Of a DNA stretch of 64,000 bases, positions 10,943 to 45,574 are shown one piece after another (position 1 is the stretch's first letter; the number at the start of each line of letters is the position of its first letter). The notes below the pieces were generated by a model. The model saw only the letters and a program-made list of their open reading frames with translations, had not been told where the DNA came from and made no database searches. Source of the DNA: Bacteroidota bacterium (GTDB taxonomy: Bacteria > Bacteroidota > Bacteroidia > JAHEXY01); NCBI GenBank assembly GCA_023251875.1, contig JAHEXY010000004.1, positions 130,359-194,358 of the forward strand, written 5' to 3'. Position numbers and translations under genes: made by a program.

Positions 10943-11006
10943 TGAGCTGATTTGGTAATTAGCAAATGTGATGATTAGCTGATTAGCTGATGAAGATTTA
11001 TAATAG

Positions 11007-11058: not shown

Positions 11059-11123
11059 AAAACAAATTTAATCCAAAAACTCCCAAATTGAACATTGAAC
11101 TTATAAACTTAAAACTCCCCATC

Positions 11124-11705
11124 ATGGAACAATTCTACACCATACAAGGTGAAGGATTTAATTCCGGCAAACCGGCCTATTTTATTAGGCTTGGAGGTTG
11201 TGATGTTGGTTGTGTTTGGTGTGATGTAAAAGATTCTTGGGATATCAATGCACATCCCTTTAAATCAATTGAAGAGATTATTGAGGATATAAAAAAATAC
11301 AATTGTAAAAATGTAGTAGTTACGGGAGGCGAACCCCTTATGCATAACCTAGACGCATTATGTGAAGCATTGAAGAAAAATAATTATAATACTTGGATAG
11401 AAACTTCTGGAGCTTATCCTTTATCAGGCCAATGGGATTGGATTTGTATTTCGCCCAAAAAATTTAAAGCTCCATTAAAAGAAGTATTAGAGAAAGCCCA
11501 TGAACTTAAAATAATTGTATTTAATAAATCTGATTTTGATTGGGCAAAAAAATATGCTGTTGAAGTGTCATGCAATTGTCAACTTTTTTTACAAGCAGAA
11601 TGGAGTAAAGAAAAAGAAATGCTGCCATTAATTATTGAGTTTGTAAAATTAAATCCTAATTGGAGAATTTCTTTGCAAACGCATAAGTACATGAATATTC
11701 CCTAA
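11124..11705 (+). CDS. queE: 7-carboxy-7-deazaguanine synthase QueE (radical SAM)
   Basis: Radical-SAM cysteine cluster GGCDVGCVWCD; TGGEPL motif. The longest ORF begins at 11088, but those codons are encoded by a repeated leader motif, so the ATG at 11124 (MEQFYTIQGEGF) is preferred. Confidence 0.8.
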   Translation: MEQFYTIQGEGFNSGKPAYFIRLGGCDVGCVWCDVKDSWDINAHPFKSIEEIIEDIKKYNCKNVVVTGGEPLMHNLDALCEALKKNNYNTWIETSGAYPLSGQWDWICISPKKFKAPLKEVLEKAHELKIIVFNKSDFDWAKKYAVEVSCNCQLFLQAEWSKEKEMLPLIIEFVKLNPNWRISLQTHKYMNIP

Positions 11706-12382
11706 TTCAACTCCTTAAAAAAATCTTTATCACTAGAAACAGCATACCAGTTTTCGGCAAGTTTTCTATATTTTATTGGATAGTAAGGAAACTGCTGTTT
11801 ACGGCTAATTAATTTTTGTAAATCTTTTTCATCTTTTAATCCTTCAATATAAACAAGGCCGGATGCACGAGTATTTTGCTTAAATGTTACAAATACCACT
11901 GTTATCACTTTATCGTCATCACAAAAGCGAACCATTGAATCTGCCGACAAATTGTAATACCCTACCGGTAATTTAAGATCTCCGTTAGCATCAGTAGGCC
12001 ACTCTCTAAAATAAACTTTATCCACTACTTTTTTTCTTTGAGCCAGATTTTGTTTGAATTCACTATCAACAGAAATTCGTGTAAATGGAAAAAACAAAGC
12101 AATTAACAGTGCTACAAGCATTATTAGAACAGGCAATCCACGATAAGTATATAAATTTCTATTAAAAATAGCCATTGAAGCACTTCTTAAAAAGACAGTA
12201 AGAAAAAACAACATCAAAACAGCTATAGCAAACATAAATTCAGGTGATGCAGCTGCAAAATAATCGAGTTGCTGTGAATAAAATGCAGCAATACCAACAG
12301 CAGTTAAGGATAAAACAATAGCTGCTTTGTATTCGAAAGTAGTAGTTATTTTTTTTAAATTATTTTGAGGCATCTTGTACAA
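11702..12382 (-). CDS. Hypothetical integral membrane protein
   Basis: 226 aa with several hydrophobic helices; no assignable motif. Confidence 0.5.
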   Translation of the reverse strand: MYKMPQNNLKKITTTFEYKAAIVLSLTAVGIAAFYSQQLDYFAAASPEFMFAIAVLMLFFLTVFLRSASMAIFNRNLYTYRGLPVLIMLVALLIALFFPFTRISVDSEFKQNLAQRKKVVDKVYFREWPTDANGDLKLPVGYYNLSADSMVRFCDDDKVITVVFVTFKQNTRASGLVYIEGLKDEKDLQKLISRKQQFPYYPIKYRKLAENWYAVSSDKDFFKELN

Positions 12383-13361
12383 TATCTTTTACATCTATAC
12401 TTAAAGCACAAAGAAAATGATTTTTCGGACACTTTCTAAATCCATGCAAACCACATGGCCTACAATTGAGTTTTTGTTTGGTTTGAATAATTTTTGATTG
12501 ATCAGCCAAAGGACCAAAGCCAAAATCAGGAACCGTAGAACAAAATATAGCAGTAGTAGGAGCATTCATTGCCGATGCAATATGCAAGGGGGAAGAATCA
12601 TTCACGTAATTCATTTGAGCATTTTTCATTAATGCTGCTGATTGTAATAAACTAAGTTTACCTGCTAAACTCATCACTTTTTTTTGTGGAAATTGACGAA
12701 TAATATCATTGCATAATTGAATATCATCCGGACCTCCCAATAAATAAATACTAAGTGAGGAAGCAATTTGTTCAATCAATTCTATCCATTTTTCTTTTGG
12801 AAATTGTTTGGTAAACCAAACAGAAGCCGGTGCAATACAAATATAAGCTTCCGTTTTATATTGTTTCACTTCATCCCAATCTTGCTGAGAAGGATATAAC
12901 TTAATTGTTTTTTCAGGATTATGTACAATCCGATTGATTAACAATAAATTTCTGTCAACTTCATGTATAGGTCTTTCTTTATTACCGAGTAAGTGACTTA
13001 CTTTTTTAGAGAAGAAAAATGACAAGGGATTTTTATTAAATCCTACCTTTAATTTTGCTTTAGAGAGAATGGTTAATAATCCTGTAGAAAAAAAACGTTG
13101 AACATTAACTACAATATCATATTCTTCTTTTCGTATTTCTTTTACTACGCCAAACCAGTATTTGTATTTTCTTGAACTTTTATCCCAACTAATAATTTTA
13201 TTTACAAAAGGATTATTATTCAATAGGGATTCATTGCCCTTTCTAAGGACAAAGTCGATTTTAGTACCAGGAAATTCTTTAGCTATATTTTCAATAATTA
13301 CTGTAGCAAGAATAACATCTCCAATAAAAGCTGTTTGTATAACAAGAACTTTTTTTGCCAT
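12360..13361 (-). CDS. Glycosyltransferase family 9 (LPS heptosyltransferase-like)
   Basis: N-terminus MAKKVLVIQTAFIGDVILATVIIENI and overall length typical of RfaF/RfaC-type GT9 enzymes. Confidence 0.75.
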   Translation of the reverse strand: MAKKVLVIQTAFIGDVILATVIIENIAKEFPGTKIDFVLRKGNESLLNNNPFVNKIISWDKSSRKYKYWFGVVKEIRKEEYDIVVNVQRFFSTGLLTILSKAKLKVGFNKNPLSFFFSKKVSHLLGNKERPIHEVDRNLLLINRIVHNPEKTIKLYPSQQDWDEVKQYKTEAYICIAPASVWFTKQFPKEKWIELIEQIASSLSIYLLGGPDDIQLCNDIIRQFPQKKVMSLAGKLSLLQSAALMKNAQMNYVNDSSPLHIASAMNAPTTAIFCSTVPDFGFGPLADQSKIIQTKQKLNCRPCGLHGFRKCPKNHFLCALSIDVKDIVQDASK

Positions 13362-13362
13362 C

Positions 13363-14184
13363 TTATACCGCCACGTTGTATTCTCTTAAAGCATCATTCA
13401 AAGAAACCTTTGTATCTGTAGAAGATTTTCGTTTTCCAATAATAAGTGCACAAGGAACATGATAAGCACCTGCATTAAATTGTTTAGAATAGGATCCCGG
13501 TATTACAACAGAACGTTCAGGTACATAACCCTTATATTCAAGAGGAGAAGAACCTGTAACATCAATTATTTTGGTTGATTGTGTTAATACTACGCCAGCC
13601 CCTAAAACGGCTTCTTTTTTTATAACCACACCTTCTACAACAATACATCTTGAACCAATAAAGCAAGCATCTTCAATCACAACCGGACCTGCTTGTACAG
13701 GTTCAAGTACACCTCCAATACCCACTCCCCCACTCAAATGTACATTCTTACCTATTTGTGCACATGAGCCCACTGTAGCCCAGGTATCAACCATGGTACC
13801 TTCATCAACATAAGCACCAATATTTACGTAGCTTGGCATCATGATAACTCCTTTAGCCAAATAAGCTCCATAACGTGCAACAGCATTCGGAACTACTCTT
13901 ACTCCTAATGCACTGTAATTTTTTTTCAAAAGCATTTTATCATGGTATTCAAATGGGCCTACTTCAATAACCTGCATTTTACAAATAGGAAAATAAAGAA
14001 TAACTGCTTTTTTTACCCATTCATTTACCTTCCAAGCTCCCTCTTGAACCTGTTCTGCTACCCTTATTTCACCTTTATCCAACCATTCTATCACTTCAGC
14101 AATACTCTTTTGTGTATCAGCGTTAGTAAGTAAAGTTCTGTCGTTCCAAGCAAGTTCAATAGCCTTAATATGATTTGTATACAT
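13363..14184 (-). CDS. dapD: 2,3,4,5-tetrahydropyridine-2,6-dicarboxylate N-succinyltransferase DapD
   Basis: Left-handed beta-helix hexapeptide repeats (GAYVDEGTMVDTWATVGSCAQIGKNVHLSGGVGIGGVLEP); N-terminal EWLDKGEIRVAE typical of DapD. Confidence 0.85.
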   Translation of the reverse strand: MYTNHIKAIELAWNDRTLLTNADTQKSIAEVIEWLDKGEIRVAEQVQEGAWKVNEWVKKAVILYFPICKMQVIEVGPFEYHDKMLLKKNYSALGVRVVPNAVARYGAYLAKGVIMMPSYVNIGAYVDEGTMVDTWATVGSCAQIGKNVHLSGGVGIGGVLEPVQAGPVVIEDACFIGSRCIVVEGVVIKKEAVLGAGVVLTQSTKIIDVTGSSPLEYKGYVPERSVVIPGSYSKQFNAGAYHVPCALIIGKRKSSTDTKVSLNDALREYNVAV

Positions 14185-14321
14185 TTACAATATGTTTGTT
14201 TTAATTATCAATATTCTTCGCAAAAGTACATTAATATTGACAGAGCTCTATAGGATAAATTCAATAAATTATCAGCGAAACATAAAATCTGATATTTGAG
14301 TAATTGTGTTAGTGCTTTATG

Positions 14322-14352
14322 TTGACTATATTGCCTTAGAATGTTATATTTG
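14322..14352 (+). promoter_or_regulatory. Putative Bacteroidetes sigma-A promoter (-33 TTG, -7 TATATTTG)
   Basis: TTGAC at 14322-14326 and TATATTTG (TAnnTTTG) at 14345-14352, 20-bp spacer, ~25 bp upstream of the TTG start of the adhesin gene. Confidence 0.35.
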
Positions 14353-14377
14353 TTAAAATGGTGTAATTTTTTTCATT

Positions 14378-17300
14378 TTGAAGCAAATCAACAAAATATA
14401 TTTACTCCTTTTATTTTCTCTTGTTGCATCTACAACATCATTTGCTTCCCATTATATGGGTGGAGAAATTACTTGGACATGTCAAGGCAATGGTCAATAT
14501 GTATTCCGGTTGGTTTTATATCGCGATTGTAATGGCATTACCATTACTTCTACCAGTGAAATTATTAGTGTTGAAAATAATTCTAATTTATTTAGCATAA
14601 CAGCCAATCTTGTTTCTAAAACGGATATTTCTCCTGCTTGTGCAATTGCTAATTTAGAATTAAGCTGTGGTGGTGGTGGGCCTTATGGTGGTAATGGAGC
14701 AGGAGCTGTTGAGGAATTTGTTTTTGAATCCAATCCGGTTACCCTTTCCGGAGTGCCACCTGTTGGTGGGTGGGCATTTACTTGGAGTGGAGGAAATAGA
14801 AATGGGGCAATTATTAATTTACAAACACCAGATACATATGGAATGACATTAAGAGCGATTATGTATTCTTATAATGGGCAAAATACGGATCCTTGTTATG
14901 ATTCATCACCTGGATTTGCAGCCCCAGCTTCAACTGCATTGTGTATGGGCTATCCTTTTACCTATAATCATTTAGCAACTGATATTGATTTTGATTCTCT
15001 TTCTTATTCTTGGGCAGAACCACTTAAAGATTATAGCGGTACATTTAATCCGCCTACCAATCCTATTCCTTGTCCATTTATGGCAGGCTATTCTTATACA
15101 AGTCCTTTGCCCGGAACAAGCCAAAATGCAAATAATGTACCTGCAACTATTGATGCATATACAGGAGAAATAAATTTTACAAGTTATACAACAGGAAGTT
15201 TTGTTACCGTAATAAAAATTGAATCATGGAGAAATGGTCAATTAATTGCTGAAATATACCGTGACATCCAAATCACATTGAACGACTGTGGGGGAAATTT
15301 ACCTCCAAGTGTAACTGCACCTTTTCAAGATCCCAATACACTTTTATATACATTATATGCTGATACATTTCAGGCAGGTGATTTAATTAAATTTGATTTA
15401 ACAGCTACTGATTTTGGAACTTTACCAAATGGTAATCCTCAAACATTAAATCTTGAAGCTTATGGTATTCAGTTTGGTACTAATTATACAAGTACTACAG
15501 GATGCCTTAATCCTCCTTGTGCAACATTAAATCCTCCGCCCCCATACTCTCAAACATTTGGCTTGCAAACAACTTTCGACTGGCAAACAGATTGTAGTCA
15601 TCTTACCCTTCCGAATGGAAGTGTTAAACAATCCAATACCTTTACTTTTGTTGTGAATGTATATGATGATTATTGTCCGGCTCCTAGTATTAATAATGTT
15701 ACTTTTACAATTACAGTAATTGGGCTAACGGTAATTGATCCTCCTATAATTCGATGTGCTTCTGTAGCCAATACAGGAGATGTTGCTTTAACATGGGATT
15801 TCCCTGTTGATACCGATTCTACATTTAATAGTTATCATGTTTATGTTTCAAATAGTTTAACTGGTACATATACCGATGTAGATAGTATTTTTAATTTTTA
15901 TCAAAATACAAGCACAATTACAGCGACACAACAATCAACCTTATTTGGAACAACGGCATTAAGCGATACACTTTATTTTTACATTCAATCACGTTCGGGT
16001 TGTGGAGGCACTCATTATAGCGCATCTTCTGATACTATTAAAACTATTTTATTAAATGTTGCAAATGTTAATCAAATTGCTGTTTTAACTTGGAATGCCT
16101 TGTATTCACCTACTAATCTTCCTACATCAAGCAATTTTTATTACATCTATAGAGAATATCCTATTGGCACATGGGCTTTACTTGATTCTACATCTGATTT
16201 AACCTATTCCGACTCAATAAGTGTGTGTAATGACTCTGTTGCCTATAGGATAGAAATTTATGATTCTATTGGCTGTTATTCTTCATCCAATATTGATGGA
16301 AATTGGTTTAAAGATAATATAGTTCCGGAAATTCCTGTATTAGATTCTGTAAGTGTAGACGCTAATAATTTAGCTACTATAGGATGGGAATCGAGCACCT
16401 CTTTAGATACCAAAGGATATATTGTTTACGAAATGATTAATGGTGTTTGGCAACCTATAGATTCTGTATGGGGTATTAGCAATACATCTTACCTTAATTT
16501 AAATTCTAATGCTGCTACTACTTCAGAAAAATACAGAGTAGCCGCTATTGATAGTTGTGATAATACCAGTCCAATGGGAGATATTCACAATACGATATTC
16601 ATGACCCCCATTCTTGACGTTTGTACAAGTGAAAATACTTTAACCTGGAATGCTTATGATGGTTGGGGAAGTGGAGGTGTAGCGCAATACAATGTTTATG
16701 CATCAGAAAACGGAGTAGATACCATTTTGATTGGTCAAACAAATAGTGTTACCACTTCATTTGTTCATTCCGGCCTTACTCAATACTCAACTTATTGCTA
16801 TTATGTGCAAGCTGTTGATACCAGTGGAAACAATTCATCTTCTTCAAACGATACTTGTATTTTTGCAAATGTGCCTCAACAACCCACTTTTTCATATCAT
16901 AACTTAGTTACAGTAATGAGTCCGAATAATGTGTATGCAACGTGTTATATTGATTTAAATGCAGATGTTTTAGAATATAAAGTGATGCGTTCAACTGTAT
17001 CCATTGGCCCTTATGAATTGTTAGATTATGTGCCTGTTGATACTGTAAATAAAATTCCATTTGTTGAATATTACGATAAATCAGCCAATACTGCCGGTCA
17101 AAGCTATTACTACAAATTTATTTCTGTTGATACTTGTGGTAATGATGGGCTAGAGTCAAATATTAGCAGAACAATTTTACTTAAAGCTTATGCCGCAGAT
17201 CATGAACAAAACTATTTATACTGGAATGATTATGAAGGTTGGTTGGGTAATGTAAACGAATATAACATTTACAGAAGTATTGATGATGGTTCAGAACAAC

Positions 17301-17755
17301 TTCTTTCTTCACTTCCCTATGTTGGTACTACAACTAATAAATATACCGATGATGTGAGTGCTTATATTACATCAGAAGGAAATTTCTGTTATCGTATTGA
17401 AGCTATTGAAGGTAACGGCAACCCTTATGGTATGTTAGATACCAGTTACTCCAATTATGCATGTGCAATTCAATTGCCGGATGTATATACAGCCAATGCC
17501 TTTACTCCTGATGGCGATGGATTAAACGATACTTATATTCCTGTAGAAGCCTATGTAAGCAGTGATGGCTATAGTTTTTCTGTTTATGACAGTTGGGGGG
17601 CACAGATTTTTGCTGCTACTGATCCTAAAAAAGGATGGGATGGTTCATCCAATGGAACCGCTTCTCCGGAAGGCGTTTATCTTTATATTGTAAAATATAA
17701 AGTGATGGGAGAGACTTATGAAGAAAAACGAGGAACCATTACTTTGATAAAATAA
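14378..17755 (+). CDS. Large secreted cell-surface protein with T9SS type-B (gliding-motility-associated) C-terminal domain
   Basis: 1125 aa; TTG start followed by signal peptide KQINKIYLLLLFSLVASTTSFA; C-terminus YTANAFTPDGDGLNDTYIP...WDGSSNG...GVYLYIV matches the type-B sorting domain. Confidence 0.75.
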   Translation: MKQINKIYLLLLFSLVASTTSFASHYMGGEITWTCQGNGQYVFRLVLYRDCNGITITSTSEIISVENNSNLFSITANLVSKTDISPACAIANLELSCGGGGPYGGNGAGAVEEFVFESNPVTLSGVPPVGGWAFTWSGGNRNGAIINLQTPDTYGMTLRAIMYSYNGQNTDPCYDSSPGFAAPASTALCMGYPFTYNHLATDIDFDSLSYSWAEPLKDYSGTFNPPTNPIPCPFMAGYSYTSPLPGTSQNANNVPATIDAYTGEINFTSYTTGSFVTVIKIESWRNGQLIAEIYRDIQITLNDCGGNLPPSVTAPFQDPNTLLYTLYADTFQAGDLIKFDLTATDFGTLPNGNPQTLNLEAYGIQFGTNYTSTTGCLNPPCATLNPPPPYSQTFGLQTTFDWQTDCSHLTLPNGSVKQSNTFTFVVNVYDDYCPAPSINNVTFTITVIGLTVIDPPIIRCASVANTGDVALTWDFPVDTDSTFNSYHVYVSNSLTGTYTDVDSIFNFYQNTSTITATQQSTLFGTTALSDTLYFYIQSRSGCGGTHYSASSDTIKTILLNVANVNQIAVLTWNALYSPTNLPTSSNFYYIYREYPIGTWALLDSTSDLTYSDSISVCNDSVAYRIEIYDSIGCYSSSNIDGNWFKDNIVPEIPVLDSVSVDANNLATIGWESSTSLDTKGYIVYEMINGVWQPIDSVWGISNTSYLNLNSNAATTSEKYRVAAIDSCDNTSPMGDIHNTIFMTPILDVCTSENTLTWNAYDGWGSGGVAQYNVYASENGVDTILIGQTNSVTTSFVHSGLTQYSTYCYYVQAVDTSGNNSSSSNDTCIFANVPQQPTFSYHNLVTVMSPNNVYATCYIDLNADVLEYKVMRSTVSIGPYELLDYVPVDTVNKIPFVEYYDKSANTAGQSYYYKFISVDTCGNDGLESNISRTILLKAYAADHEQNYLYWNDYEGWLGNVNEYNIYRSIDDGSEQLLSSLPYVGTTTNKYTDDVSAYITSEGNFCYRIEAIEGNGNPYGMLDTSYSNYACAIQLPDVYTANAFTPDGDGLNDTYIPVEAYVSSDGYSFSVYDSWGAQIFAATDPKKGWDGSSNGTASPEGVYLYIVKYKVMGETYEEKRGTITLIK

Positions 17756-17774
17756 GTTTCTATTCTTCTTTCTT

Positions 17775-18482
17775 CTATTTTTTAATTGCATCTATAAAAT
17801 ATTTCCACAAATTATCGCTTGCAGGAGGCATAGCTTCAAGACTAATTAAGTTTTTAGTTACAGGATGTAAAAATTCTGCTCTGCGTGAATGTAAACTAAT
17901 AGAAGCATCTTCGTTTGAGCGTGGTGCTCCATATTTTAAATCTCCTTTAATTTCGCAACCAATATGAGACAGTTGAGCTCTTATTTGATGATGCCTTCCT
18001 GTTTTTAAAGTAATTTCTAGTAAATGATAATGATCAGAACTTGCAATTAATTTATAATCTAATTCAGCCCGTTTAGAATCACGAATTAATTTATCGTAAA
18101 CGTATGACTTATTATTTTTCTCGTTCTTTTTAAGATAATGGACTAAAGTACCTGATGGTGGTTCCGGTTTATTTTTAACAATGGCCCAATATGTTTTTTT
18201 TATTTCTTTCAAGCGAAACATTTCATTAATGCGCGTAAGCGCTTTGCCTGTTTTTGCAAAAATAATAATGCCACTTACGGGCCTATCTAAGCGATGTGTA
18301 ACACCAAGAAAAACTTCTCCAGGTTTGTTGTATTTTTTCTTTATGTATTGTTTGATGTGTTCTGAAAGAGGAGTATCACCGGTTTTATCTCCCTGCACAA
18401 TTTCCGATGGCCTTTTATTTACAATTATAAGGTGGTTGTCTTCAAATAAAATTTCAGGAATGATATCCATGTTGTTTTTCAT
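17775..18482 (-). CDS. RluA-family RNA pseudouridine synthase
   Basis: Catalytic motif HRLDRPVSGIIIFAKT. Confidence 0.85.
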   Translation of the reverse strand: MKNNMDIIPEILFEDNHLIIVNKRPSEIVQGDKTGDTPLSEHIKQYIKKKYNKPGEVFLGVTHRLDRPVSGIIIFAKTGKALTRINEMFRLKEIKKTYWAIVKNKPEPPSGTLVHYLKKNEKNNKSYVYDKLIRDSKRAELDYKLIASSDHYHLLEITLKTGRHHQIRAQLSHIGCEIKGDLKYGAPRSNEDASISLHSRRAEFLHPVTKNLISLEAMPPASDNLWKYFIDAIKK

Positions 18483-18554
18483 TATTCCAACAAATATACA
18501 AGATTAAGGTACAATTTGATTGTAATTTATAGACTAAATCAGAGGCAAGCTTTT

Positions 18555-18581
18555 ATAAAGTTTCAAAATTTGAAACTTTAT
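18555..18581. promoter_or_regulatory. 27-bp perfect palindrome ATAAAGTTTCAAA-A-TTTGAAACTTTAT upstream of higBA (candidate operator)
   Basis: 13-bp arms around a single central base, 29 bp upstream of the higB start; the same core recurs at 43154-43198. Confidence 0.45.
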
Positions 18582-18609
18582 TGCTATTTTTACGTAAAAT
18601 GTTTATAGC

Positions 18610-18918
18610 ATGAATATTATTGCAAGAGGTACTTTGTGGTATTATATGAAAAGATATTCTCTTGCAGCTAAACAATTAGAATTGTGGCACAACGATGTAA
18701 GAAAACTTAAATGGAAGAAATCAACTGATGTATTAGTTGATTATCCTAAAGCAAGAACCATAAAAAACAATAGGGTTATTTTTCCCATTTTGGGAAATGC
18801 ATATTGTTTGATAGTAGGAGTTGATTATCGTTTCGAAAGAGTGTTTATTATTTTCTTCGGCACGCATGCTGAATACGATGAAATAAATGCAGAAACAATT
18901 GATTATAAAAAGCCATAA
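18610..18918 (+). CDS. higB: Type II toxin-antitoxin system toxin, HigB family (RelE superfamily)
   Basis: 102 aa; pattern GNAYCLIVGVDYRFERVFIIFFGTHAEYDE resembles the HigB GNxYRLI...THxEYDK signature; sits upstream of an HTH antitoxin, the reversed order typical of HigBA. Confidence 0.75.
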   Translation: MNIIARGTLWYYMKRYSLAAKQLELWHNDVRKLKWKKSTDVLVDYPKARTIKNNRVIFPILGNAYCLIVGVDYRFERVFIIFFGTHAEYDEINAETIDYKKP

Positions 18919-18929
18919 ATATATAAGCT

Positions 18930-19304
18930 ATGAATATAAAACCTATAAAAAACAAAAAAGACTATACCCTTGCTTTAGAAAAGATATATGCTTTTATGAA
19001 TAAAGATGTTAAAAAAGGAAGTATTGAAGCTGACGAATATGATATCCTTTGTACGCTTGTAGAAAAATACGAAAATGAATATTATCCAATAGCTCCCCCG
19101 CATCCAATTGAAGCCATTAAATTTAGGATGGAACAATTAGATATGAAAACACAAGATTTGATTGATATAATTGGAAATAAAAGTCGTGCCTCTAAAATAT
19201 TAAATAAAAAAGAGGGCTTGACTCTTAAAATGATTCGTAAAATACATGATGCGCTAAAAATTCCTTTAGATATTTTGGTTATGGAATATGCTTTACATTC
19301 TTAA
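18930..19304 (+). CDS. higA: Type II toxin-antitoxin system antitoxin, HigA family (HTH)
   Basis: 124 aa; MNIKPIKNKKDY...PIEAIKFRMEQLDMKTQDLIDIIGNKSRASKILNKKEGLTLKMIRKIHDALKIP matches the HigA HTH antitoxin pattern; 11 bp downstream of higB. Confidence 0.75.
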   Translation: MNIKPIKNKKDYTLALEKIYAFMNKDVKKGSIEADEYDILCTLVEKYENEYYPIAPPHPIEAIKFRMEQLDMKTQDLIDIIGNKSRASKILNKKEGLTLKMIRKIHDALKIPLDILVMEYALHS

Positions 19305-19954
19305 TTTTCCGTATTAGCACTATAAGAATAACCCACTTCCACTTCTTTCGCTTTGTGTTCAAATGAAATTCTAATATAAAACTCATCGTATTTTTCATGT
19401 GGGAAAGAATAAAATTTTACATCTTCTCCTTTTGTAATATCATATTCATGCGTTTCTATATCTTTTTTCATTAGTTCATAATCGCCTTTATCAAATAAGT
19501 CTTTAGCATAGCTTAATGCTGTATTAAACCAAAATACACTATCATCAATTGAATTATCTTTCGTTACTGTTTTTAGATTAATGGAAAATTCGAAATAATG
19601 GCAACCACCATGGTGTATAGTTAAAGTATCTTTTCCATCAAGCAAAAGCACGGCTTCTTTTTGTTGGTTGTTCCATTTGTAATTAGCAAACTGTGGCTTA
19701 TCTTTTAAAAAATCCGAAGTTTGTTGTTTCATATCAAACTCACAATGCTCTATTTTTTTCTTAGGGCTAACTTTTGAAATTACTTTTTGAATAAACGTTT
19801 GCGAGCTATCTTTTATTTTTCCTGAAGCATCATTGCTTTCTGAATTTGAACTTCCGCAAGAATTAAGAATAATAGACAAAAGTATAAAGGCAAACCCAAT
19901 CCCTTTTAATTGAAAAGCAGCTAAACAAAAGCTCTTAGTATTGTTCTTTTTCAT
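19301..19954 (-). CDS. Hypothetical lipoprotein
   Basis: Signal peptide with lipobox (ILNSCGSS). Confidence 0.5.
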
Positions 19955-20750: not shown

Positions 20751-20773
20751 ATCGATGATTTATTAAAATTATT

Positions 20774-21928: not shown

Positions 21929-21989
21929 ATTTTGCCTAAATTTGCAGGCTCGCGAAGTTACAAAATAATCAAATAAGCTGCGTTGATAT

Positions 21990-22991: not shown

Positions 22992-23000
22992 GCAACGAAA

Positions 23001-25697: not shown

Positions 25698-25809
25698 CAA
25701 CACCCATTTGAATAAAGGACGGATTTTAATTATTTTAGTATTTTGAGATGAAAGCAATTTATTAAATACTATTTTTGCATTAATGGTGTTTACTAAATTA
25801 TTTATTAAA

Positions 25810-25895
25810 GGCTTTCTAAAAATTACAATTTTTGTGTCCCTCTCTTTGAGAGGGATTAAGGGAGAGAACATAAATAAAATAATTTTTAGAAAGCC
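25810..25895. repeat. MITE-like element (~85 bp) with 15-bp terminal inverted repeats GGCTTTCTAAAAATT / AATTTTTAGAAAGCC and internal CCCTCTC hairpin
   Basis: TIRs read directly; core TCCCTCTCTTTGAGAGGGATTAAGGGAGAGA; homologous copies at 33954-34032 and 55910-55992. Confidence 0.6.
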
Positions 25896-25953
25896 CTTAA
25901 TAATTACGAAGATAAATTATTAAAAAGAGGCTAACAAAATAATCAGTCGTATC

Positions 25954-27252: not shown

Positions 27253-27343
27253 ATAAACATTGAAACATTCATGCGCCATTTTCACAAAGAGAGATGAAAA
27301 TAACAGGAATGTTCCATTTGACTAAAAAACAAATTATTTTCAA

Positions 27344-28306
27344 ATGAAAATAAGTAAAGAAGTTAAGGTAGGTGGGGTAATGATTTTATCATTAGCTATT
27401 CTTTTTTGGGGACTAAATTTCTTGAAAGGTAATGATGTATTTAGATCGCATCGTACCTTTTATGGAAAATACAACGGTGTTGATGGCCTTGCCGTTTCAA
27501 GCAAAGTTTTGGTAAATGGATTTAAAGTAGGTAAAGTAACCAACATTTTTTTAGCCAAAGATCAAACGCAAGTTGTAGTTGTTTTTGATGTAGATAATAA
27601 TGATTTAGTTATCCCTAAAAACACAATAGCCAAAATGATTAGCGAAGATTATTTTGGAACCAAAGCTATATCATTAATTATTGGTGATACCAATGCTACT
27701 GCTGAAAACAAAGATACTTTGCAAACAGAAGCACAATCTTCTTTAACGGATGAAGTAAACAAACAAGTTTTACCCATAAAGAAAAAAGCCGAAAGTTTAA
27801 TTAGTTCAGTTGATTCTGTGGTAATAGCTTTTAGAGCCGTTTTTAATCCTAAAACCAATGAATCAATCAGGCAGGCTATTGCAAGTATTCAATCTACTTT
27901 GAAAAATGTAGAAACCATTTCATTTGGCTTAGATACAATATTAGGTTCTAAAAATTCAGAATTAGCTCAAATTGTAAATAATATAAAAGTGGTTTCTTCG
28001 AACATTAAAAAGAATAGTTATGAGCTTTCAACCATTATAAAAAATGTAAATGGGATAACAGATTCTTTGGCTGCCTCAAATATTACCAGTGTTATTAATC
28101 ATGCGAATGGATCATTAATGGAATTAGAATCAATTATTCATAAAGTAAATAGTGGAGAAGGCACCTTGGGTATGCTTATTAACAATGATAGTATTTATAA
28201 TAATTTAGCAACTTCATCAGCCGATTTAGATAAATTGCTCAAAGATTTAAAAGAAAATCCAAGTAGATACGTGCATGTTTCAGTATTTGGAAAAAAGGAT
28301 AAATAA
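27344..28306 (+). CDS. MlaD/Mce-family protein (lipid-asymmetry ABC system substrate-binding component)
   Basis: N-terminal TM helix followed by Mce domain (FYGKYNGVDGLAVSSKVLVNGFKVGKVTNI). Confidence 0.7.
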   Translation: MKISKEVKVGGVMILSLAILFWGLNFLKGNDVFRSHRTFYGKYNGVDGLAVSSKVLVNGFKVGKVTNIFLAKDQTQVVVVFDVDNNDLVIPKNTIAKMISEDYFGTKAISLIIGDTNATAENKDTLQTEAQSSLTDEVNKQVLPIKKKAESLISSVDSVVIAFRAVFNPKTNESIRQAIASIQSTLKNVETISFGLDTILGSKNSELAQIVNNIKVVSSNIKKNSYELSTIIKNVNGITDSLAASNITSVINHANGSLMELESIIHKVNSGEGTLGMLINNDSIYNNLATSSADLDKLLKDLKENPSRYVHVSVFGKKDK

Positions 28307-28324
28307 AGCCCTAAAAAATCACCT

Positions 28325-29647
28325 ATGATTGCAAACATACTCTTCCTTATACTTCTTATTGCAGGCTCCGCTCTTTTTACTATTAATGTTCGCAAGGTTA
28401 TTCGCAATATTAACCTAGGTAAAGATATTGACAGAAAAGACAATCCCTCTAAAAGGCTTAGCTCCATGATTAAGGTAGCTCTTGGCCAATCGAAAATGGT
28501 AGTGAGGCCGGTTGCCGGAATTTTACATATTATAGTTTATGCAGGTTTTATTATTATCAATATTGAAGTAATAGAGATAATAATTGATGGCATATTTGGT
28601 ACCCATCGTGTACTTTCATTTATGGGTCCTTTGTATAATTTTCTTATTGCCTCGTTTGAGTTTTTAGGTTTTGGAGTAGCTGCAGCCTGCGCCATTTTTT
28701 TAGTGAGAAGAAACATTATTAAAATAAAACGCTTTTGGAGCAAAGAAATTACATCTTGGCCTCGTACAGATGCAAACCTTATTCTTTGCACAGAAATTGC
28801 TTTAATGACAGCTTTCTTAACCATGAATGCGGCCGATTATTTACTTCAGCAACAACATTACGAACATTATATTTCTGTAGGATCATTTCCAATAAGCTCA
28901 AGTCTTATTGCTCCACTCCTATCCGGATTTTCATTACCCACCCTTGAAATGATCGAACGTATTTGTTGGTGGTTTCATATAATAGGTATTGTTTCTTTCT
29001 TAAATTATTTACCCTATTCAAAACATTTTCATATCATTCTTGCATTTCCTAATGTCTACTTTTCCAATCTTAACAATAAAGGAAAGTTCACCAATATGGA
29101 AGCCGTAACAAAAGAGGTAAAACTAATGCTTGATCCTAATGCAAATCCTTATGCCGCTGCTGACCCTAATGCTGCTCCGGTGCATAATAAATTTGGGGCC
29201 AAAGATGTTACCGATCTTACCTGGAAACAATTAATGGATGCATACTCCTGTACAGAATGTGGAAGATGCACATCAAACTGTCCGGCTAATATTACGGGTA
29301 AATTACTTTCTCCACGTAAAATTATGATGGATACCCGCGATCGATTAGAAGAAGTTGGAAAAGGCATTGATAAAAATGGAAAAGATTTTCAAGATGGGAA
29401 ATCACTTTTAGGCGATTATATTTTAGCTGAGGAATTATGGGCATGTACATCATGTAATGCATGCGTAGAAGCATGTCCGGTAAATATTGATCCTCTTTCT
29501 CTTATTGTCGACTTACGCAGATTTTTAGTAATGGAACAGTCTGCAGCACCACAAGAATTAAATATGGTATTTAACAATATTGAAAACAATGGAGCGCCTT
29601 GGCAATTTGCTCAGGCCAATAGATTAAAATGGACGGAAGAAAATTAG
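28325..29647 (+). CDS. Membrane-anchored iron-sulfur oxidoreductase subunit (two 4Fe-4S ferredoxin motifs)
   Basis: N-terminal TM helices; CTECGRCTSNCP and CTSCNACVEACP cysteine clusters. Confidence 0.7.
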   Translation: MIANILFLILLIAGSALFTINVRKVIRNINLGKDIDRKDNPSKRLSSMIKVALGQSKMVVRPVAGILHIIVYAGFIIINIEVIEIIIDGIFGTHRVLSFMGPLYNFLIASFEFLGFGVAAACAIFLVRRNIIKIKRFWSKEITSWPRTDANLILCTEIALMTAFLTMNAADYLLQQQHYEHYISVGSFPISSSLIAPLLSGFSLPTLEMIERICWWFHIIGIVSFLNYLPYSKHFHIILAFPNVYFSNLNNKGKFTNMEAVTKEVKLMLDPNANPYAAADPNAAPVHNKFGAKDVTDLTWKQLMDAYSCTECGRCTSNCPANITGKLLSPRKIMMDTRDRLEEVGKGIDKNGKDFQDGKSLLGDYILAEELWACTSCNACVEACPVNIDPLSLIVDLRRFLVMEQSAAPQELNMVFNNIENNGAPWQFAQANRLKWTEEN

Positions 29648-29719
29648 CTGATTAGCCAATGAGATGATGTGCTGATGGATATTTAAAAACATTGAACTCT
29701 AAACTTTGAACTTATACTC

Positions 29720-30502
29720 ATGAACTTTACCGTGCCCACAATGGCTGATTTAGCTGCTAAAGGAGAATCTCCCGAAATACTTTTTTGGGTTGGATGTTCA
29801 GGCAGTTTTGATGATAGAGCAAAAAAAATTACACGTGCTATTGCCAATATTTTACATCATGTTGGAATAAAATATGCTGTATTGGGAACAGAAGAGAGTT
29901 GTACAGGAGATCCTGCAAAACGCGCGGGAAATGAATTTCTATTTCAAATGCAAGCCATGCAAAATATTATGGTATTGAATGGTTATTCAGTAAAAAAAAT
30001 AGTTACCGGCTGCCCGCATTGTTTTAACACAATAAAAAATGAATATCCAGAATTAGGTGGTACTTATGAAGTAATTCATCATACCCAATTAATTCAGCAA
30101 TTAATAAATGAAGGAAAATTAAGTGTGCAAGGAGGGGCATTTAATGGCAAAAAAATCACCTTTCATGACCCCTGTTATTTAGGCCGAGGTAATGGTGTGT
30201 ATGAAGCTCCACGAGAAATAATTTCAAAACTAGATACTGAATTGGTTGAAATGAAACGCTCAAAAGCAAATGGCCTTTGCTGTGGAGCAGGAGGTGCTCA
30301 AATGTTTAAAGAACCTGAACATGGAAACAAAGATGTTAATATTGAAAGAACGGAAGAAGCTTTATCACTACAACCTAATATTATTGCTACCGGCTGTCCA
30401 TTTTGCATGACCATGATGACAGATGGTGTAAAACACAAAGAACAAGAAAAAACAATTCAAGTACTCGATGTAGCAGAATTGGTGAATCAATCTATAAAAT
30501 AA
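29720..30502 (+). CDS. CCG-domain (cysteine-rich) iron-sulfur protein, heterodisulfide-reductase/LutA-like
   Basis: Two CCG-type motifs (GCPHCFNT...CCGAGG and GCPFCMTMM); immediately downstream of the ferredoxin-type subunit. Confidence 0.7.
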   Translation: MNFTVPTMADLAAKGESPEILFWVGCSGSFDDRAKKITRAIANILHHVGIKYAVLGTEESCTGDPAKRAGNEFLFQMQAMQNIMVLNGYSVKKIVTGCPHCFNTIKNEYPELGGTYEVIHHTQLIQQLINEGKLSVQGGAFNGKKITFHDPCYLGRGNGVYEAPREIISKLDTELVEMKRSKANGLCCGAGGAQMFKEPEHGNKDVNIERTEEALSLQPNIIATGCPFCMTMMTDGVKHKEQEKTIQVLDVAELVNQSIK

Positions 30503-30619
30503 TAGACTGTATATCAAATACTACATTCTTATTTACTCATATTTTTAAAACCTTTTGTTACCTTTCTTCGTAAGAATGATAATTAGCCTAAAGCCTATTA
30601 TTTACTTTTATCGAAATGT

Positions 30620-31102
30620 ATGGTACACTATAGTGAAATGTCGGCAGAATCTAGAGTATGGGTTTACCAAAGTAATCGAGAATTTACATCTACAGAAATT
30701 GCAGAAATAAGAAAAAAAGGTGAGGTATTTGTAAACAATTGGACTGCTCATAAGCAAGAACTGAAAGCATGTTTTGATATATACTATAATTGGTTTATTG
30801 TTCTTATTGTTGATGAGGAACAAGCAAAAGCTTCTGGTTGTTCAATTGACAAATCTATTGCATTTATGAAACAACTAGAAAAAGAATACAACATCAATCT
30901 CTTCGATCGTTTAAATATCTGCTACGTAAAAAACGAAAAAGTAACTTCATGTAAATTAGCAGATTTTGAACCCTTAATTGAAAAAGGTGAAATATCCGGT
31001 TCTACATTTGTATTCAATAATCTTATCCGAACTAAAGAAGATATGGAATGCAATTGGCGAATTCCCCTGAAAGAAAGTTGGCACAAGAAATTTGTAGACT
31101 AA
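30620..31102 (+). CDS. Hypothetical protein
   Basis: 160-aa ORF without assignable motifs; likely start at the internal Met (MSAESRVWVYQ). Confidence 0.45.
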   Translation: MVHYSEMSAESRVWVYQSNREFTSTEIAEIRKKGEVFVNNWTAHKQELKACFDIYYNWFIVLIVDEEQAKASGCSIDKSIAFMKQLEKEYNINLFDRLNICYVKNEKVTSCKLADFEPLIEKGEISGSTFVFNNLIRTKEDMECNWRIPLKESWHKKFVD

Positions 31103-31121
31103 AATTATATACTTCCAAACT

Positions 31122-31157
31122 CCCCTCTCCTTTTTCAAGGAGAGGGATGGGGTGAGG
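31122..31157. repeat. CCCTCTCC/GGAGAGGG hairpin element (member of the CT-rich palindromic family)
   Basis: CCCCTCTCCTTTTTCAAGGAGAGGGATGGGGTGAGG; related copies at 35203-35232, 37171-37208, 37330-37366, 50440-50490. Confidence 0.5.
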
Positions 31158-31242
31158 TTTCAAAATTTTATTTCCCATTATTTTTTACTCCCAAATGTAA
31201 TCCGTATTATTAGGTTTAGATCATTTTAAAAAGCACAAGCTT

Positions 31243-33321
31243 ATGAAAAAACTCATACTCCTTTTTATACTCATATCTACCATTACCAAAGCTCAAGATT
31301 ATAAATGGACCCAATCTTTTGGCGGTACAAATTCTGATTATAGCCGAGGTGTGGTTATTGATAAAGCAGGAAACATGTATATAGCAGGATCTTTTAAAGG
31401 TACTGTAGATTTTAACCCCGGCTCAGGAACCGATTCTCATACTTCAGGCACTTATGATGATATTTATATTGTAAAACTCGATGCCTCAGGAAATTTTATT
31501 TGGGCTAAAACATATGGCAGTGCCGATTACGATTACCCCAATGCTATTGCCATTGATGAATCTGCTAATCTTTATATTGCAGGAACCTTCACGGGAACAA
31601 CAGATCTAAATCCATCTTCATCCAGTACAGATGCGCATACTTCAAATGGTAGTTATGATGTTTTTATTGAAAAACTGGATAGTGCAGGAAAATTTAAATG
31701 GGGGAAATCTTTTGGTGGAACTGGCAGTGATTACGTACGTAGTATTGCATTGGATGCATCAGATAATGTATACGTAACCGGTTATTATGCAGATGAAGTA
31801 GATTTTGATCCGAGTTCAGGCACTGATAAAAATACATCAAAAGGAGGCGATGATGTTTATATTGAAAAACTGGATGCTTCCGGTAATTTTGTTTGGGTTA
31901 CTACTTTTGGCGGAAGCTCTACTGACAAAGGTTATGGCATTGCAACTGATGTTTCAGGTAATGTTTATGTAACAGGAAGTTTTACTGATACAGTAGATTT
32001 TAAACCTTTTTCTATAGTATCGTTTGAACATATTTCAAATGGAGGTACGGATATTTTTGTAGAAAAATTAAATGATGCAGGAAGTGCACAGTGGGTAAGA
32101 ACTTTTGGAAGTACTCAAACCGATTATGGTTTATCACTTGGTATTGATGCATCCAACAATATTTCAGTTACCGGATACTTTGAAGATGTGGCGGATTTTG
32201 ATCCTTCTTCATCAGGAACAGATTCTCATACCTCAAAAGGCGGATATGATGTTTTTGTTCAAAAACTAGATGCTTCCGGAAATTTTAAATGGGCGCAAAC
32301 CTATGGAGGCACGAGTGATGATTATCCTTCTTGCATTGCTACAGATTCTAAAAACGCTAATTATGTAATTGGTAATTTTAAAGGCACTGCCGATTTTGAT
32401 CCTTCCTCATCCGGTACAGATTCCCATACATCTAGCGGAAGCGCAGATATATTTATTCAAAAACTCGATAGTTTAGGAAATTTTCAATGGACCCATACTT
32501 TTGGTGGGAGCTCCGGTGATTATGGATATTATATTACTACAGATGCTTCAAACAATTTGTATTCCTTAGGATATTTCGAATACACCATCGATTTTGATCC
32601 CACATCCGGCACCGATTCCCATACTTCTAATAACGGATATTACGATGTATTTATTAGTAAATATGGTGAGGGTTGTAACAACTCTTATGGCAGTATTAAT
32701 GCAAGTGAATGTTATAGTTATGCTTCTCCAAGCGGTAATTACAATTGGACATCTTCCGGAACGTATACTGATACCATTGCCAATACAGGTGGGTGTGATA
32801 GCATTATTACAATTACTTTAACAATTGAAACGGTTGATACATCAGTAACTTTTTTAAACAATATCTTAGCTGCAAGTGCCAGTAGTGCCACTTTTCAATG
32901 GCTCGATTGCGATAATGGCTATACTTTTGTTACAGCACAAACCAGCCAAATTTTTATTCCTACCAGTTCAGGAAACTATGCTGTAATGGTTACACAAAAT
33001 GGTTGTACGGATACGAGTTCTTGTTATGCAATTACAGTAGTTGATACGGGATCAGGAAGCAGCATTCAAGAAAATAGTTTTGAAAAAAATATTACTATCT
33101 CTCCTAATCCAACAAAGGGAGCATTAAATATTTTGCTCGAAAAAAATTACAATACCATTGAATTAGAAATTCATAATTGCTTGGGTGAAAAAATAGAAAA
33201 ACAAATTTATAGCAATACCCAAACTATTAATCTTACTATTAATGCGCCACAAGGAATTTATTTCTTAATGCTTAAAAACGATCAAGAACAAAAAGCACTT
33301 ATAAAAGTACTTAAAGAATAA
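31243..33321 (+). CDS. Secreted SBBP beta-propeller-repeat protein with T9SS type-A C-terminal sorting domain
   Basis: At least eight repeats of the form SGxDxxxxIxxDxxGNxY..G.F.GTxDFxP.SG.D; C-terminus ISPNPTKGALNIL...GIYFLML. Confidence 0.75.
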   Translation: MKKLILLFILISTITKAQDYKWTQSFGGTNSDYSRGVVIDKAGNMYIAGSFKGTVDFNPGSGTDSHTSGTYDDIYIVKLDASGNFIWAKTYGSADYDYPNAIAIDESANLYIAGTFTGTTDLNPSSSSTDAHTSNGSYDVFIEKLDSAGKFKWGKSFGGTGSDYVRSIALDASDNVYVTGYYADEVDFDPSSGTDKNTSKGGDDVYIEKLDASGNFVWVTTFGGSSTDKGYGIATDVSGNVYVTGSFTDTVDFKPFSIVSFEHISNGGTDIFVEKLNDAGSAQWVRTFGSTQTDYGLSLGIDASNNISVTGYFEDVADFDPSSSGTDSHTSKGGYDVFVQKLDASGNFKWAQTYGGTSDDYPSCIATDSKNANYVIGNFKGTADFDPSSSGTDSHTSSGSADIFIQKLDSLGNFQWTHTFGGSSGDYGYYITTDASNNLYSLGYFEYTIDFDPTSGTDSHTSNNGYYDVFISKYGEGCNNSYGSINASECYSYASPSGNYNWTSSGTYTDTIANTGGCDSIITITLTIETVDTSVTFLNNILAASASSATFQWLDCDNGYTFVTAQTSQIFIPTSSGNYAVMVTQNGCTDTSSCYAITVVDTGSGSSIQENSFEKNITISPNPTKGALNILLEKNYNTIELEIHNCLGEKIEKQIYSNTQTINLTINAPQGIYFLMLKNDQEQKALIKVLKE

Positions 33322-33342
33322 GATGATAAATTTAGACTCTGC

Positions 33343-33909
33343 TTACAGTTTGTTTTTCATGAGCAATTGCATTGCTTGATAAATTGCAATTCCCACAAGG
33401 CTGCCAACAATTGCTCCTGCCAATACATCAGTAGGATAATGTACACCCAAATAAATTCTACTATAACATAAGAGTAATGCCCAAAATAGCATAGCCCACC
33501 ATAAATATTTTATTTTGTCTTTAATTTGGGGTGTAAGAAAAACCAAAATGCTAAAAGAATTAGCAGCATGCGAAGAAACAAATCCATAAGTACCGCCACA
33601 ACTATTATTTACTAAATGCAAAGAGTTTTGGATTTCAGTATTATGACAAGGTCTTAATCGCTGAACCAATTCTTTAAAAAGGTGAACTGAAATTTGATCT
33701 GAAAGTGTAATGGTAATGATTGCGAAAAAGACAATCAGAATACTGTCTTTTTTATAATGTTTAATCAGCAAAGCAACGATGAGAATATAAAACGGAATCC
33801 AGGTAAAACGTTCAGATGCCTGAAACATAATAAAATCAAGCCATTCTGTATGGAGGCCATTAATTTTTAAAAGAAGCCCAATATCGATATTTTTTAATTG
33901 TTCAATCAA
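33343..33909 (-). CDS. PAP2-family phosphatase (membrane)
   Basis: Motifs SFVSSHAANSFS and GVHYPTDVLAG. Confidence 0.75.
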   Translation of the reverse strand: MIEQLKNIDIGLLLKINGLHTEWLDFIMFQASERFTWIPFYILIVALLIKHYKKDSILIVFFAIITITLSDQISVHLFKELVQRLRPCHNTEIQNSLHLVNNSCGGTYGFVSSHAANSFSILVFLTPQIKDKIKYLWWAMLFWALLLCYSRIYLGVHYPTDVLAGAIVGSLVGIAIYQAMQLLMKNKL

Positions 33910-33953
33910 TTTCTCAATTATAACATTGAACTTAAAAACGTTGAACGACTAAT

Positions 33954-34032
33954 GGCTTTTAAAAAATTTATTATTTATTTCCTCTCCCTACCCTCTCAAA
34001 GAGAGGGACAAAAATGATAATTTTTAAAAGCC
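33954..34032. repeat. MITE-like element copy (TIRs GGCTTTTAAAAAATTT / AATTTTTAAAAGCC; core CCTCTCCCTACCCTCTCAAAGAGAGGGA)
   Basis: Same architecture as 25810-25895 and 55910-55992, in inverted orientation relative to the 25810 copy. Confidence 0.6.
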
Positions 34033-34033
34033 A

Positions 34034-35020
34034 TTATTCGTTAAGATTTTTCCAAAGTAAATCTTTTAATTCAGTAATACCCTTATCTGTAACTGCTGAA
34101 ATAAATACATGAGGAATATCCGGTAATTTTTTAGTGAGTTTTTTTACTGCTTTGGCATCAATCAAATCTAGTTTTGTGATTGCCAATATTCTTTTCTTAT
34201 CAAGCAACTCGGGATTATACTGTTCCAGCTCATTTACCAAAACCTCATATTCATGTTTGATATTTTCAGAATCAGCGGCCACCATAAAAAGTAAAATGGA
34301 GTTTCTTTCAATATGTCTCAGAAATCGTAAGCCTAAACCCTTGCCTTCATGAGCTCCTTCTATAATGCCCGGTATATCGGCCATTACAAAAGACTGAAAA
34401 TCTCTATAGGCTACAATTCCTAAATTAGGAACCAATGTAGTAAACGGGTAATTACCAATTTTAGGTTTTGCTGCAGACACTACCGAAAGTAAAGTTGATT
34501 TACCTGCATTTGGAAATCCCACCAATCCCACATCAGCCAATATTTTTAATTCTAGAACTTTCCAAGATTCTTGGCCTTCTTCTCCTGGTTGCGCATAACG
34601 CGGAGTTTGTTTAGTAGGCGTTTTAAAATGAGCATTACCCATGCCTCCTTTTCCTCCAGATACTAAAATTCTTTCTTCTCCTTCCTCTGTAATTTCAAAA
34701 AGTATTTTTCCGGTTTCAAAATCTTTAGCAACTGTACCAAGTGGTACTTCAAGAATTACATCTTCACCGGTTCGTCCGGTACACATACCGCCTTGCCCAT
34801 TTTTCCCATCTTGGGCAACCACATGTTTACGGTATTTAAGATGAATAAGCGTCCAAAGTTGTTTGTTACCTTTTAAAATTACACTTCCTCCTTTACCTCC
34901 ATCCCCACCATCGGGCCCACCTTGAGCGGTAAATTTATCTCTATACAAATGAACAGAACCTGCCCCACCCTTTCCGGACTTACAATTTATTTTTACGTAA
35001 TCTACAAAGTTTGATTCCAC
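34034..35020 (-). CDS. obg: GTPase Obg
   Basis: Obg fold N-terminus [21 protein letters not shown], glycine-rich [15 protein letters not shown]-binding motifs GFPNAGKST. The longest ORF starts at a TTG at 35071 inside a repeated leader motif; the GTG at 35020 gives a typical Obg N-terminus ([11 protein letters not shown]). Confidence 0.85.
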
Positions 35021-35221
35021 AGGTTTTAGTTCTAGGTTTAACAGTTCAAAGTTATAAAGTTCAATGTTCAATTTACCATTCTTTATAACTTATGTAAAAT
35101 AATTTATCTTGCGTTTAATTAAATGCAATAACTGAAAGAAGTTTTTTATTTTCTCTAGACTTGATAGAGTAAATATCAAAATAAATCTAAGAAGATTTTA
35201 TTCTCTCCCCTTTGGGGAGAG

Positions 35222-45558: not shown

Positions 45559-45574
45559 ATATACAAATGCGTTT

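Follow-up and report, generated by a model that had tools for sequence, protein, structure and literature searches.

A 64-kb stretch of DNA from an uncultured Bacteroidota bacterium (contig JAHEXY010000004.1; 32% G+C), which we call the window and to whose positions all coordinates refer, carries similar short repeats beside four genes: queE, a CCG-domain Fe-S protein gene, obg and a PAP2-family phosphatase gene (Table 1). We find that these four sites form one family of degenerate head-to-tail arrays, with a unit of 7-8 nt (TTGAACT, variants TNAAACT). Every site holds multiple heptamer copies head to tail, with 3-7 units per site.

The sites share an exact 11-mer, AACATTGAACT, which occurs four times: at 11091-11101, 29688-29698 and 33922-33932 on the plus strand, and at 35068-35058 on the minus strand. 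Inside the CCG and obg sites, second copies with one mismatch (AACTTTGAACT) follow 14-15 nt downstream (29702-29712 and 35053-35043, respectively). All four sequences named in the original prediction, which had drawn attention to the motif, are present to within 1-2 nt of where it put them. Across 32 nt, the copies at queE and obg show 84% identity, and they have an exact 18-mer, AAATTGAACATTGAACTT, in common. The five units of the CCG array (29692-29726) keep an exact 7-nt register, and the fifth holds the gene's ATG at 29720. At two of the four sites, Tandem Repeats Finder detects weak arrays of period 7/8, that of the CCG gene having period 7 and 3.7 copies.

A second repeat, ATTAGCTGATTAGC, has exactly two occurrences, at 10974-10987 and 29643-29656. 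The first of them lies in an octamer array ~30 nt past the stop codon of the preceding gene; queE follows ~100 nt downstream.

Table 1. Repeat arrays and the genes beside them.
Feature	Position	Strand	Units or remarks
queE array	11088-11117	+	TTGAACA TTGAACT TATAAACT TAAAACTC
CCG Fe-S gene array	29688-29726	+	AACA + TTGAACT CTAAACT TTGAACT TATACTC ATGAACT
Fourth array, beside PAP2 gene	33922-33947	+	AACA TTGAACT TAAAAACG TTGAACG; units 33926-33947
obg array	35021-35071	-	TTGAACA TTGAACT TTATAACT TTGAACTG TTAAACC TAGAACT AAAACCT; longest (seven units, 51 nt)
Second repeat family, TGATTAGC octamer array	10972-10991	+	2.5 copies
ATTAGCTGATTAGC, octamer family of TGATTAGC	29643-29656	+	includes TAG stop of 4Fe-4S gene, 29645-29647
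queE (7-carboxy-7-deazaguanine synthase), long form	11088-11705	+	205 aa from the likely TTG start
CCG-domain (HdrD-like) Fe-S protein gene	29720-30502	+
PAP2-family phosphatase gene	33343-33909	-	TTG start 33909
obg (GTPase ObgE)	34034-35020	-	328 aa from GTG 35020 (35020-35018)

Placement and periodicity of the arrays

Word counts do not set the motif apart. About ten further 11-mers of comparable composition are likewise present four times in the window, and the bare count is thus unremarkable. Six matches to AACATTGAACT with at most one mismatch were observed against 3.1 in shuffled sequence; at least six arose in 7 of 100 shuffles, and the excess is not significant. An exact 18-mer repeat was seen in 4 of 10 windows simulated with a Markov-3 model. 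Furthermore, [A/T]TGAAC (a start and an Asn codon) and AACTTT (Asn-Phe) are ordinary words of start regions. All of this would fit if the arrays were chance likenesses among AT-rich, low-complexity start regions with no common origin.

Placement and internal structure point the other way. All six matches fall within the four gene-start sites, although only ~10% of the window is non-coding, which gives a probability of ~1e-4 for four of four. The 7-8 nt periodicity runs through every site: in period-7 self-similarity, the four array-bearing upstream segments rank among the top six of 34 (0.46-0.51, against a mean of 0.33). The likeness of the queE and obg copies, and the occurrence of TTGAACT-type arrays in other contigs, also speak against chance, which we consider improbable as the explanation. 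We judge the motif to be real because of its placement and periodicity, and not because of word statistics. Period-7/8 self-similarity over all leaders of the window does not exceed that of shuffled sequence; heptamer periodicity is therefore limited to these sites and a few others.

In the start regions that bear arrays, there is no Shine-Dalgarno sequence, A and U predominate, G is scarce (4-9%) and folding is weak. The three forward copies have predicted folding energies of -1.1 to -2.2 kcal/mol, with z between 0 and +1.

The start codon of queE

The array at queE probably lies within the gene. Public gene calls begin at ATG 11124 and give a protein of 193 aa, and the original prediction had likewise taken this ATG as the true start. 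That choice is probably wrong. The Met encoded at 11124 is internal to a motif, LP[LIV]ME, that is conserved in the long-form QueE of many Bacteroidota, including cultured Hymenobacter, Sphingobacterium and Mucilaginibacter. In addition, the solved QueE structures of E. coli and B. subtilis align to residues 8-13 of the long open reading frame (ORF) (LKLPIM), and in an 80% relative the queE call also begins at a TTG in this position, 12 codons upstream. The probable start is TTG 11088, the sole canonical start codon that takes in the conserved residues. On this sequence evidence, the array is likely to provide the start codon and the first ten codons (MNIELINLKL). If translation does begin there, the motif sits inside translated coding sequence at queE, a situation that the original prediction had itself named as one that would refute it.

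Many 193-aa QueE entries in databases may share this too-short start call.

Arrays at obg, the PAP2 gene and the CCG gene

The obg array directly abuts the start codon in forward orientation, with a gap of 0 nt. Translation from GTG 35020 yields the universal MESNFVDY N-terminus and a protein of the same length as in the closest relatives. In a 92% relative, an in-frame stop and no start codon lie upstream of this GTG. These observations confirm the start that the original prediction had chosen for obg. Among the species representatives of GTDB, the best Obg match is 74% identical.

The fourth array is not upstream of any plus-strand gene; it lies antisense to the PAP2 gene, 13-39 nt upstream of its TTG start. 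The earlier placement of the motif at the 5' ends of genes thus stands for queE, the CCG gene and obg, while the fourth copy is inverted relative to PAP2. We considered a hairpin between this antisense copy and the PAP2 start region (-10 kcal/mol) and rejected it as insignificant, as 19 of 200 shuffles fold equally well. In the 92% relative, the PAP2 start lacks the UUGAAC word that pairs in this hairpin, as judged by eye and not by folding.

A spacer of 72 nt separates the CCG gene from its conserved 4Fe-4S partner upstream (28325-29647), and the array takes up the last 30 nt of this spacer. From this arrangement, the two genes probably form one operon, with the array inside the operon transcript.

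Turnover between relatives

When leaders are compared between relatives, array sequence changes much more quickly than the genes do, in steps of whole units. The obg leader of the 92% relative (L085/L086, a RIFCSPLOWO2 Bacteroidetes metagenome-assembled genome [MAG]) is homologous but has one gap of 21 nt (3 x 7). This relative also keeps two inverted units upstream of PAP2, in an obg-PAP2 spacer of 41 nt. In an 87% relative (L087), the obg leader consists of other low-complexity words of the CCATTA/CCTAT type, and in an 83% relative no array is found in the obg leader. A similar pattern is seen at the CCG gene. Two 90% relatives differ here: one has TTGAAACT-type units at the equivalent position, the other has none. 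In an 83% relative, the 4Fe-4S and CCG genes are split by two inserted genes, and the CCG gene follows 8 nt after the nearer one. Directly upstream of obg, other Bacteroidota carry octamers (CATATTAA/CATTAGCA) and heptamers (CTGCCTA, ACCAACA, CATAACT) of unrelated sequence, arranged as arrays.

A MITE-like (miniature inverted-repeat transposable element) sequence of ~90 nt, bounded by terminal inverted repeats (TAATGGCTTTTAAAAA...) around a central hairpin (CCCTCTC...GAGAGGG), is present in three copies (33950-34036, 25799-25906 and 55904-56002). The first of these is an insertion in the obg-PAP2 spacer relative to the 92% relative. In a 90% relative (L089, 7254-7338), the spacer after the 4Fe-4S gene holds the octamers TGTACCAA TATACCAA TGAGTCAA TGTGCCAA. 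This octamer array and an inverted copy ~20 nt downstream make a long hairpin at the place where the window has its ATTAGCTGATTAGC array.

Heptamer arrays elsewhere in Bacteroidota and in metagenomes

Arrays of this period are excluded from coding DNA and, as a class, are not specific to start codons. We surveyed 1.5 Mb of Bacteroidota loci with Tandem Repeats Finder (period 7-8, at least 3 copies), using crude ORF-based gene calls. Of 71 period-7/8 arrays, 63 are intergenic, against 16% intergenic DNA. Compared with random intergenic positions, the intergenic arrays are not enriched near starts: 28 lie within 45 nt of a start (27.8 expected) and 15 within 10 nt (11.8 expected). A depletion of G on the sense strand of near-start arrays (19 vs 10 arrays) was unconvincing and was set aside.

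Long intergenic arrays of 13-32 heptamer or octamer units occur at L082 (12199-12424), L053 (7641-7835), L025 (69-204) and L008 (1385-1486); examples are a CAGTGAA-type array in Maribacter polysiphoniae and a GTCTAAC-type array in a Flavobacterium MAG. Such arrays in other Bacteroidota show that they can grow large.

Scanning metagenomes with the shared 18-mer gave mainly chance matches within genes, and only ~10 contigs carry genuine arrays. These TTGAAC-type arrays reach up to ~9 units, occur in both orientations and lie on unrelated contigs. On contig L148, forward arrays precede ilvD and a neighboring gene, and on contig L132 the TTG of an array is the probable start of a LolE-like permease gene. 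Others lie just past stop codons, and at L199 and L184 inverted pairs of arrays form terminator-like hairpins.

For the genome itself, we read the window and 8.9 kb of its right flank (~73 kb). The right flank has arrays of other units and no TTGAAC array; the left flank added nothing. One of these right-flank arrays (L095, 1118-1177) is the 60-nt spacer after a peptide deformylase gene, which is made up of octamers (ATGTACCA ATGTACCG ATATAGCA ATTTAGCA ...) and ends at the ATG of the next gene. Two further genes at the same locus are preceded by heptamer-like arrays (ACTAACA ACTAATA ACTAAGT; AACCAAT AACAAAC AACCAAC).

Origin of the arrays and possible roles

With a probability of about one half, we favor the view that the arrays are slippage-generated, cryptic heptanucleotide tandem repeats that are tolerated at gene starts and do not constitute a shared switch. 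They would originate by slipped-strand mispairing, or by local duplication of AT-rich DNA in start regions, and would lengthen and shorten in the same way. They would persist solely outside reading frames, because perfect forward repeats create stop codons. At start codons they would be tolerated because the ribosomes of Bacteroidota do not use Shine-Dalgarno pairing; these ribosomes would instead need an A/U-rich, weakly structured region, and a direct repeat of a unit that is not self-complementary would supply one. Because the unit begins with TTG, an array could also donate a start codon, as it probably does at queE. On this view, the arrays would not act as one sequence-specific switch for queE, the CCG gene, obg and PAP2 alike.

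Several observations weigh against this view. Local slippage alone does not explain why four loci within 24 kb have the same unit, nor why separate loci have an identical 18-mer; in L007 and L008, neighboring arrays are mostly of differing units. All four copies in the window lie within ~20 nt of a start, against a survey baseline of ~0.2-0.4 per array, which makes this placement mildly surprising (post hoc probability ~0.006-0.04). We also rejected an unstructured leader as a distinguishing mark, as most start regions of the window are equally unstructured. Given this, low structure is permissive for arrays and not diagnostic of them. For the reuse of the unit, a copying mechanism, a common seed or selection on the sequence may be involved. 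As a speculation, the seed could be the start context [A/T]TGAAC (start plus Asn codon), which the CCG array carries in register and which is also found among the first codons of queE and PAP2.

The main alternative is an element that acts at the RNA level, in which the arrays would be a sequence-specific platform in the start region that tunes translation of a set of genes. Variants of this idea include a site for ribosomal protein S1, a site for a cold-shock-type or other single-stranded RNA (ssRNA)-binding protein, a ribosome standby site, and TTG-initiated mini-ORFs. Three of the four copies are forward and end 0-2 nt from the start codon or include it, one unit is repeated at four loci, and the forward copies are unstructured. 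The CCG leader can be read in frame as TTG AAC TTA TAC TCA TGA, with the TGA overlapping the ATG in a coupling-type arrangement. The forward arrays before ilvD and its neighbor, the TTG of the LolE-like gene, and analogous proposals for the TAACTGA and Nostoc heptamers (see below) are also consistent with such a role. However, one copy in the window is antisense, and TTGAAC arrays elsewhere occur in both orientations. The motif is not kept at orthologous leaders past ~90% relatives, and period-7/8 arrays in general are not enriched at starts within intergenic DNA. The queE array is probably coding, and no binding factor could be identified. Taken together, we regard an RNA-level element as unlikely.

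A narrower version would make the TTGAACN arrays a sequence-specific start-region module of Bacteroidota, which initiate independently of Shine-Dalgarno pairing. Such modules would derive from duplication of the start and second codon ([A/T]TGAAC). They could create or move starts (as at queE and the LolE-like gene), make upstream mini-ORFs or recruit an ssRNA-binding factor, and gain or loss of units would tune or re-position initiation of scattered genes. We hold this version to be distinctly doubtful.

Regulation at the DNA level fits less well. One possibility is that units with a TTTG serve as -7 boxes of Bacteroidota sigma-A promoters (TAnnTTTG) with very short leaders. The obg array does hold TAACTTTG, an exact TAnnTTTG, 22 nt upstream of the GTG. 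Clear matches also lie near the starts of several window genes, such as TATATTTG 8 nt before the ATG of 17775-18482. Nevertheless, the exact box is present in only one of the four copies: the CCG array has AAACTTTG, queE has none, and the sense strand of PAP2 has TATAATTG. No -33 TTTG is found 19-21 bp upstream, the TTGs of the obg array lying 7 and 14 bp upstream. Furthermore, the 92% relative has TAACTTTA at the box position, and ~90 TAnnTTTG matches would be expected by chance in so AT-rich a window, as estimated from base composition. A promoter function is, on balance, quite improbable.

It is very improbable that the TTGAAC direct repeats are an operator through which a transcription factor, for instance a response regulator, controls queE, the Fe-S genes, obg and PAP2 together. 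Some response-regulator sites do typically consist of direct repeats with a hexamer core, and the core is identical at the four loci. Yet the cores are spaced 7, 14 or 15 bp apart, which is neither one helical turn (about 10-11 bp) nor a palindrome. The sites overlap or abut start codons and not promoters, and one of them is within the spacer of a probable operon. The genes have no common function, and relatives at 80-90% have lost or replaced the sites while retaining the genes.

The original prediction had offered a shared regulatory element or a small repeat family. The second of these holds: there is one unit type, also found in unrelated contigs. The first is not supported, given the loss of the motif beyond ~90% relatives, the inverted copy, the irregular spacing and the unrelated genes.

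If the arrays are only slippage-prone filler, they hold a lesson for annotation: the longest-ORF rule falsely extends obg, and public gene calls probably start queE 12 codons too late. If they act on translation, they would be among very few sequence-defined start-region elements in a phylum that ignores the Shine-Dalgarno sequence.

Other repeats in the window

The window is rich in other small repeats. A Y1-transposase gene (REP-associated tyrosine transposase-like, PF01797; 4457-4888, plus strand) lies amid the palindromes GGGCTTTAGCCC / GGCTTTAGCC, with hairpins at 157-168, 4429-4440, 4272-4281, 4883-4892 and 11048-11059. The word GGCTAAAGCC occurs five times against 0.03 expected. From the sequence, the gene and its palindromes look like a system of repetitive extragenic palindromes (REP) and their REP-associated tyrosine transposase (RAYT).

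An identical, perfect 27-nt palindrome, ATAAAGTTTCAAAATTTGAAACTTTAT, is found at 18555-18581 and at 43163-43189; one copy is 28 nt upstream of a HigB-toxin gene and the other separates two convergent genes. The arms of the palindrome (TTTGAAACTTTAT) are similar to the TTGAACT unit. Two long non-coding regions (45254-45574 and 54240-55112) are dense with varied small stem-loops, such as AAGCCCGAAAGGGCTT and AACCCTGAAAGGGTT, and have GCTGAGCGAAGTCGAAGC-type repeats in common, in inverted orientation.

On the minus strand, the segments 39484-39528 and 39627-39710 hold another heptamer-type array (CTTCCAA CTTCTGT CTCCCGT ...; period 14 in Tandem Repeats Finder), ~60-100 nt upstream of gene 37368-39422, and beside it an unannotated, Lys/Ala-rich ORF of 27 aa (MAKTTKKAAAKKPAAKKTAAKKTSKKK), whose DNA is a 15-nt tandem repeat. 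Gene 31243-33321 (plus strand) contains six tandem repeats of ~198 nt (66 aa) with 67-76% DNA identity, and its product is probably a secreted repeat-domain protein. Genes of the window also encode CHU_C and Por_Secre_tail domains.

Comparison with known systems

A hairpin element of the REP or MITE type was rejected as an identity for the TTGAACT arrays: the forward copies do not fold, and the true hairpin elements of the window are other sequences. No Rfam 15 covariance model matched the window at its gathering score, and at E<=1 there were only irrelevant, sub-threshold miRNA and snoRNA matches on neighboring elements. The window contains no tRNA or tmRNA. The unit may bear some likeness to the phage T7 'epsilon' enhancer (UUAACUUUA).

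Flavobacterium tunes translation through mRNA structure and upstream adenines and not through the Shine-Dalgarno sequence (Baez et al. 2019, PMC6847099). This start-region model rests on positional adenines and low structure and includes no repeated unit. Most start regions of the window fit it without any array.

Cyanobacterial short tandemly repeated repetitive (STRR) sequences offer a likeness from another phylum. These heptanucleotide arrays can be much longer than those described here. In Nostoc PCC 7120, heptamers (TTTTGAA / TTCAAAA) lie near start codons and promoters, and effects on promoter activity and on the action of NtcA and LexA have been reported (bioRxiv 10.1101/2022.06.06.494920). 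Like the TTGAACT arrays, the Nostoc and STRR repeats are contiguous heptamers near or over start codons, spread over a genome, with a regulatory role that is suspected and unproven; their units differ from TTGAACT.

The closest parallel is the TAACTGA system, which has the structural features tested in common with the TTGAACT arrays, except for the unit sequence and with a mixed picture for placement and orientation. TAACTGA heptamer direct repeats are known from marine Beggiatoaceae, cyanobacteria and five Bacteroidetes (MacGregor 2015, PMC4679880). They form sets of 2-7 units, sometimes split by related variant units, and are mostly intergenic and forward, most commonly ending 1 nt before the start codon. 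They occupy regions with no Shine-Dalgarno sequence and no predicted RNA structure, and the forward repeats hold stop codons. Between strains, indels of 7 nt are seen, and an array may be missing from close relatives. The downstream genes are functionally unrelated; function and mechanism are unknown, with translational regulation through S1, Csp or CsrA-type binding proteins having been proposed (PMC4679880). The TTGAACT arrays likewise lack predicted RNA structure and change length in 7-nt steps between close relatives, as in the 21-nt obg gap.

There are also differences. The TAACTGA doublet TAACTGATAACTGA is absent from the window, even allowing two mismatches. The TTGAACT arrays are shorter and more degenerate and mix 7- and 8-nt units, and only four sets were seen in the 73 kb read; TAACTGA sets are numerous per genome, well above those of similar heptamers. 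In orientation, obg and the CCG gene follow the TAACTGA pattern (forward at the start), while the queE array is probably coding and that at PAP2 is reversed. At queE, unlike in the TAACTGA system, the array probably supplies the start and N-terminal codons. Should the TTGAACT arrays prove to act on translation, they would provide a handle on the unexplained start-codon heptamers of Beggiatoaceae and cyanobacteria. Regardless, the motif is an additional case of the already described, poorly understood class of heptamer repeats at gene starts.

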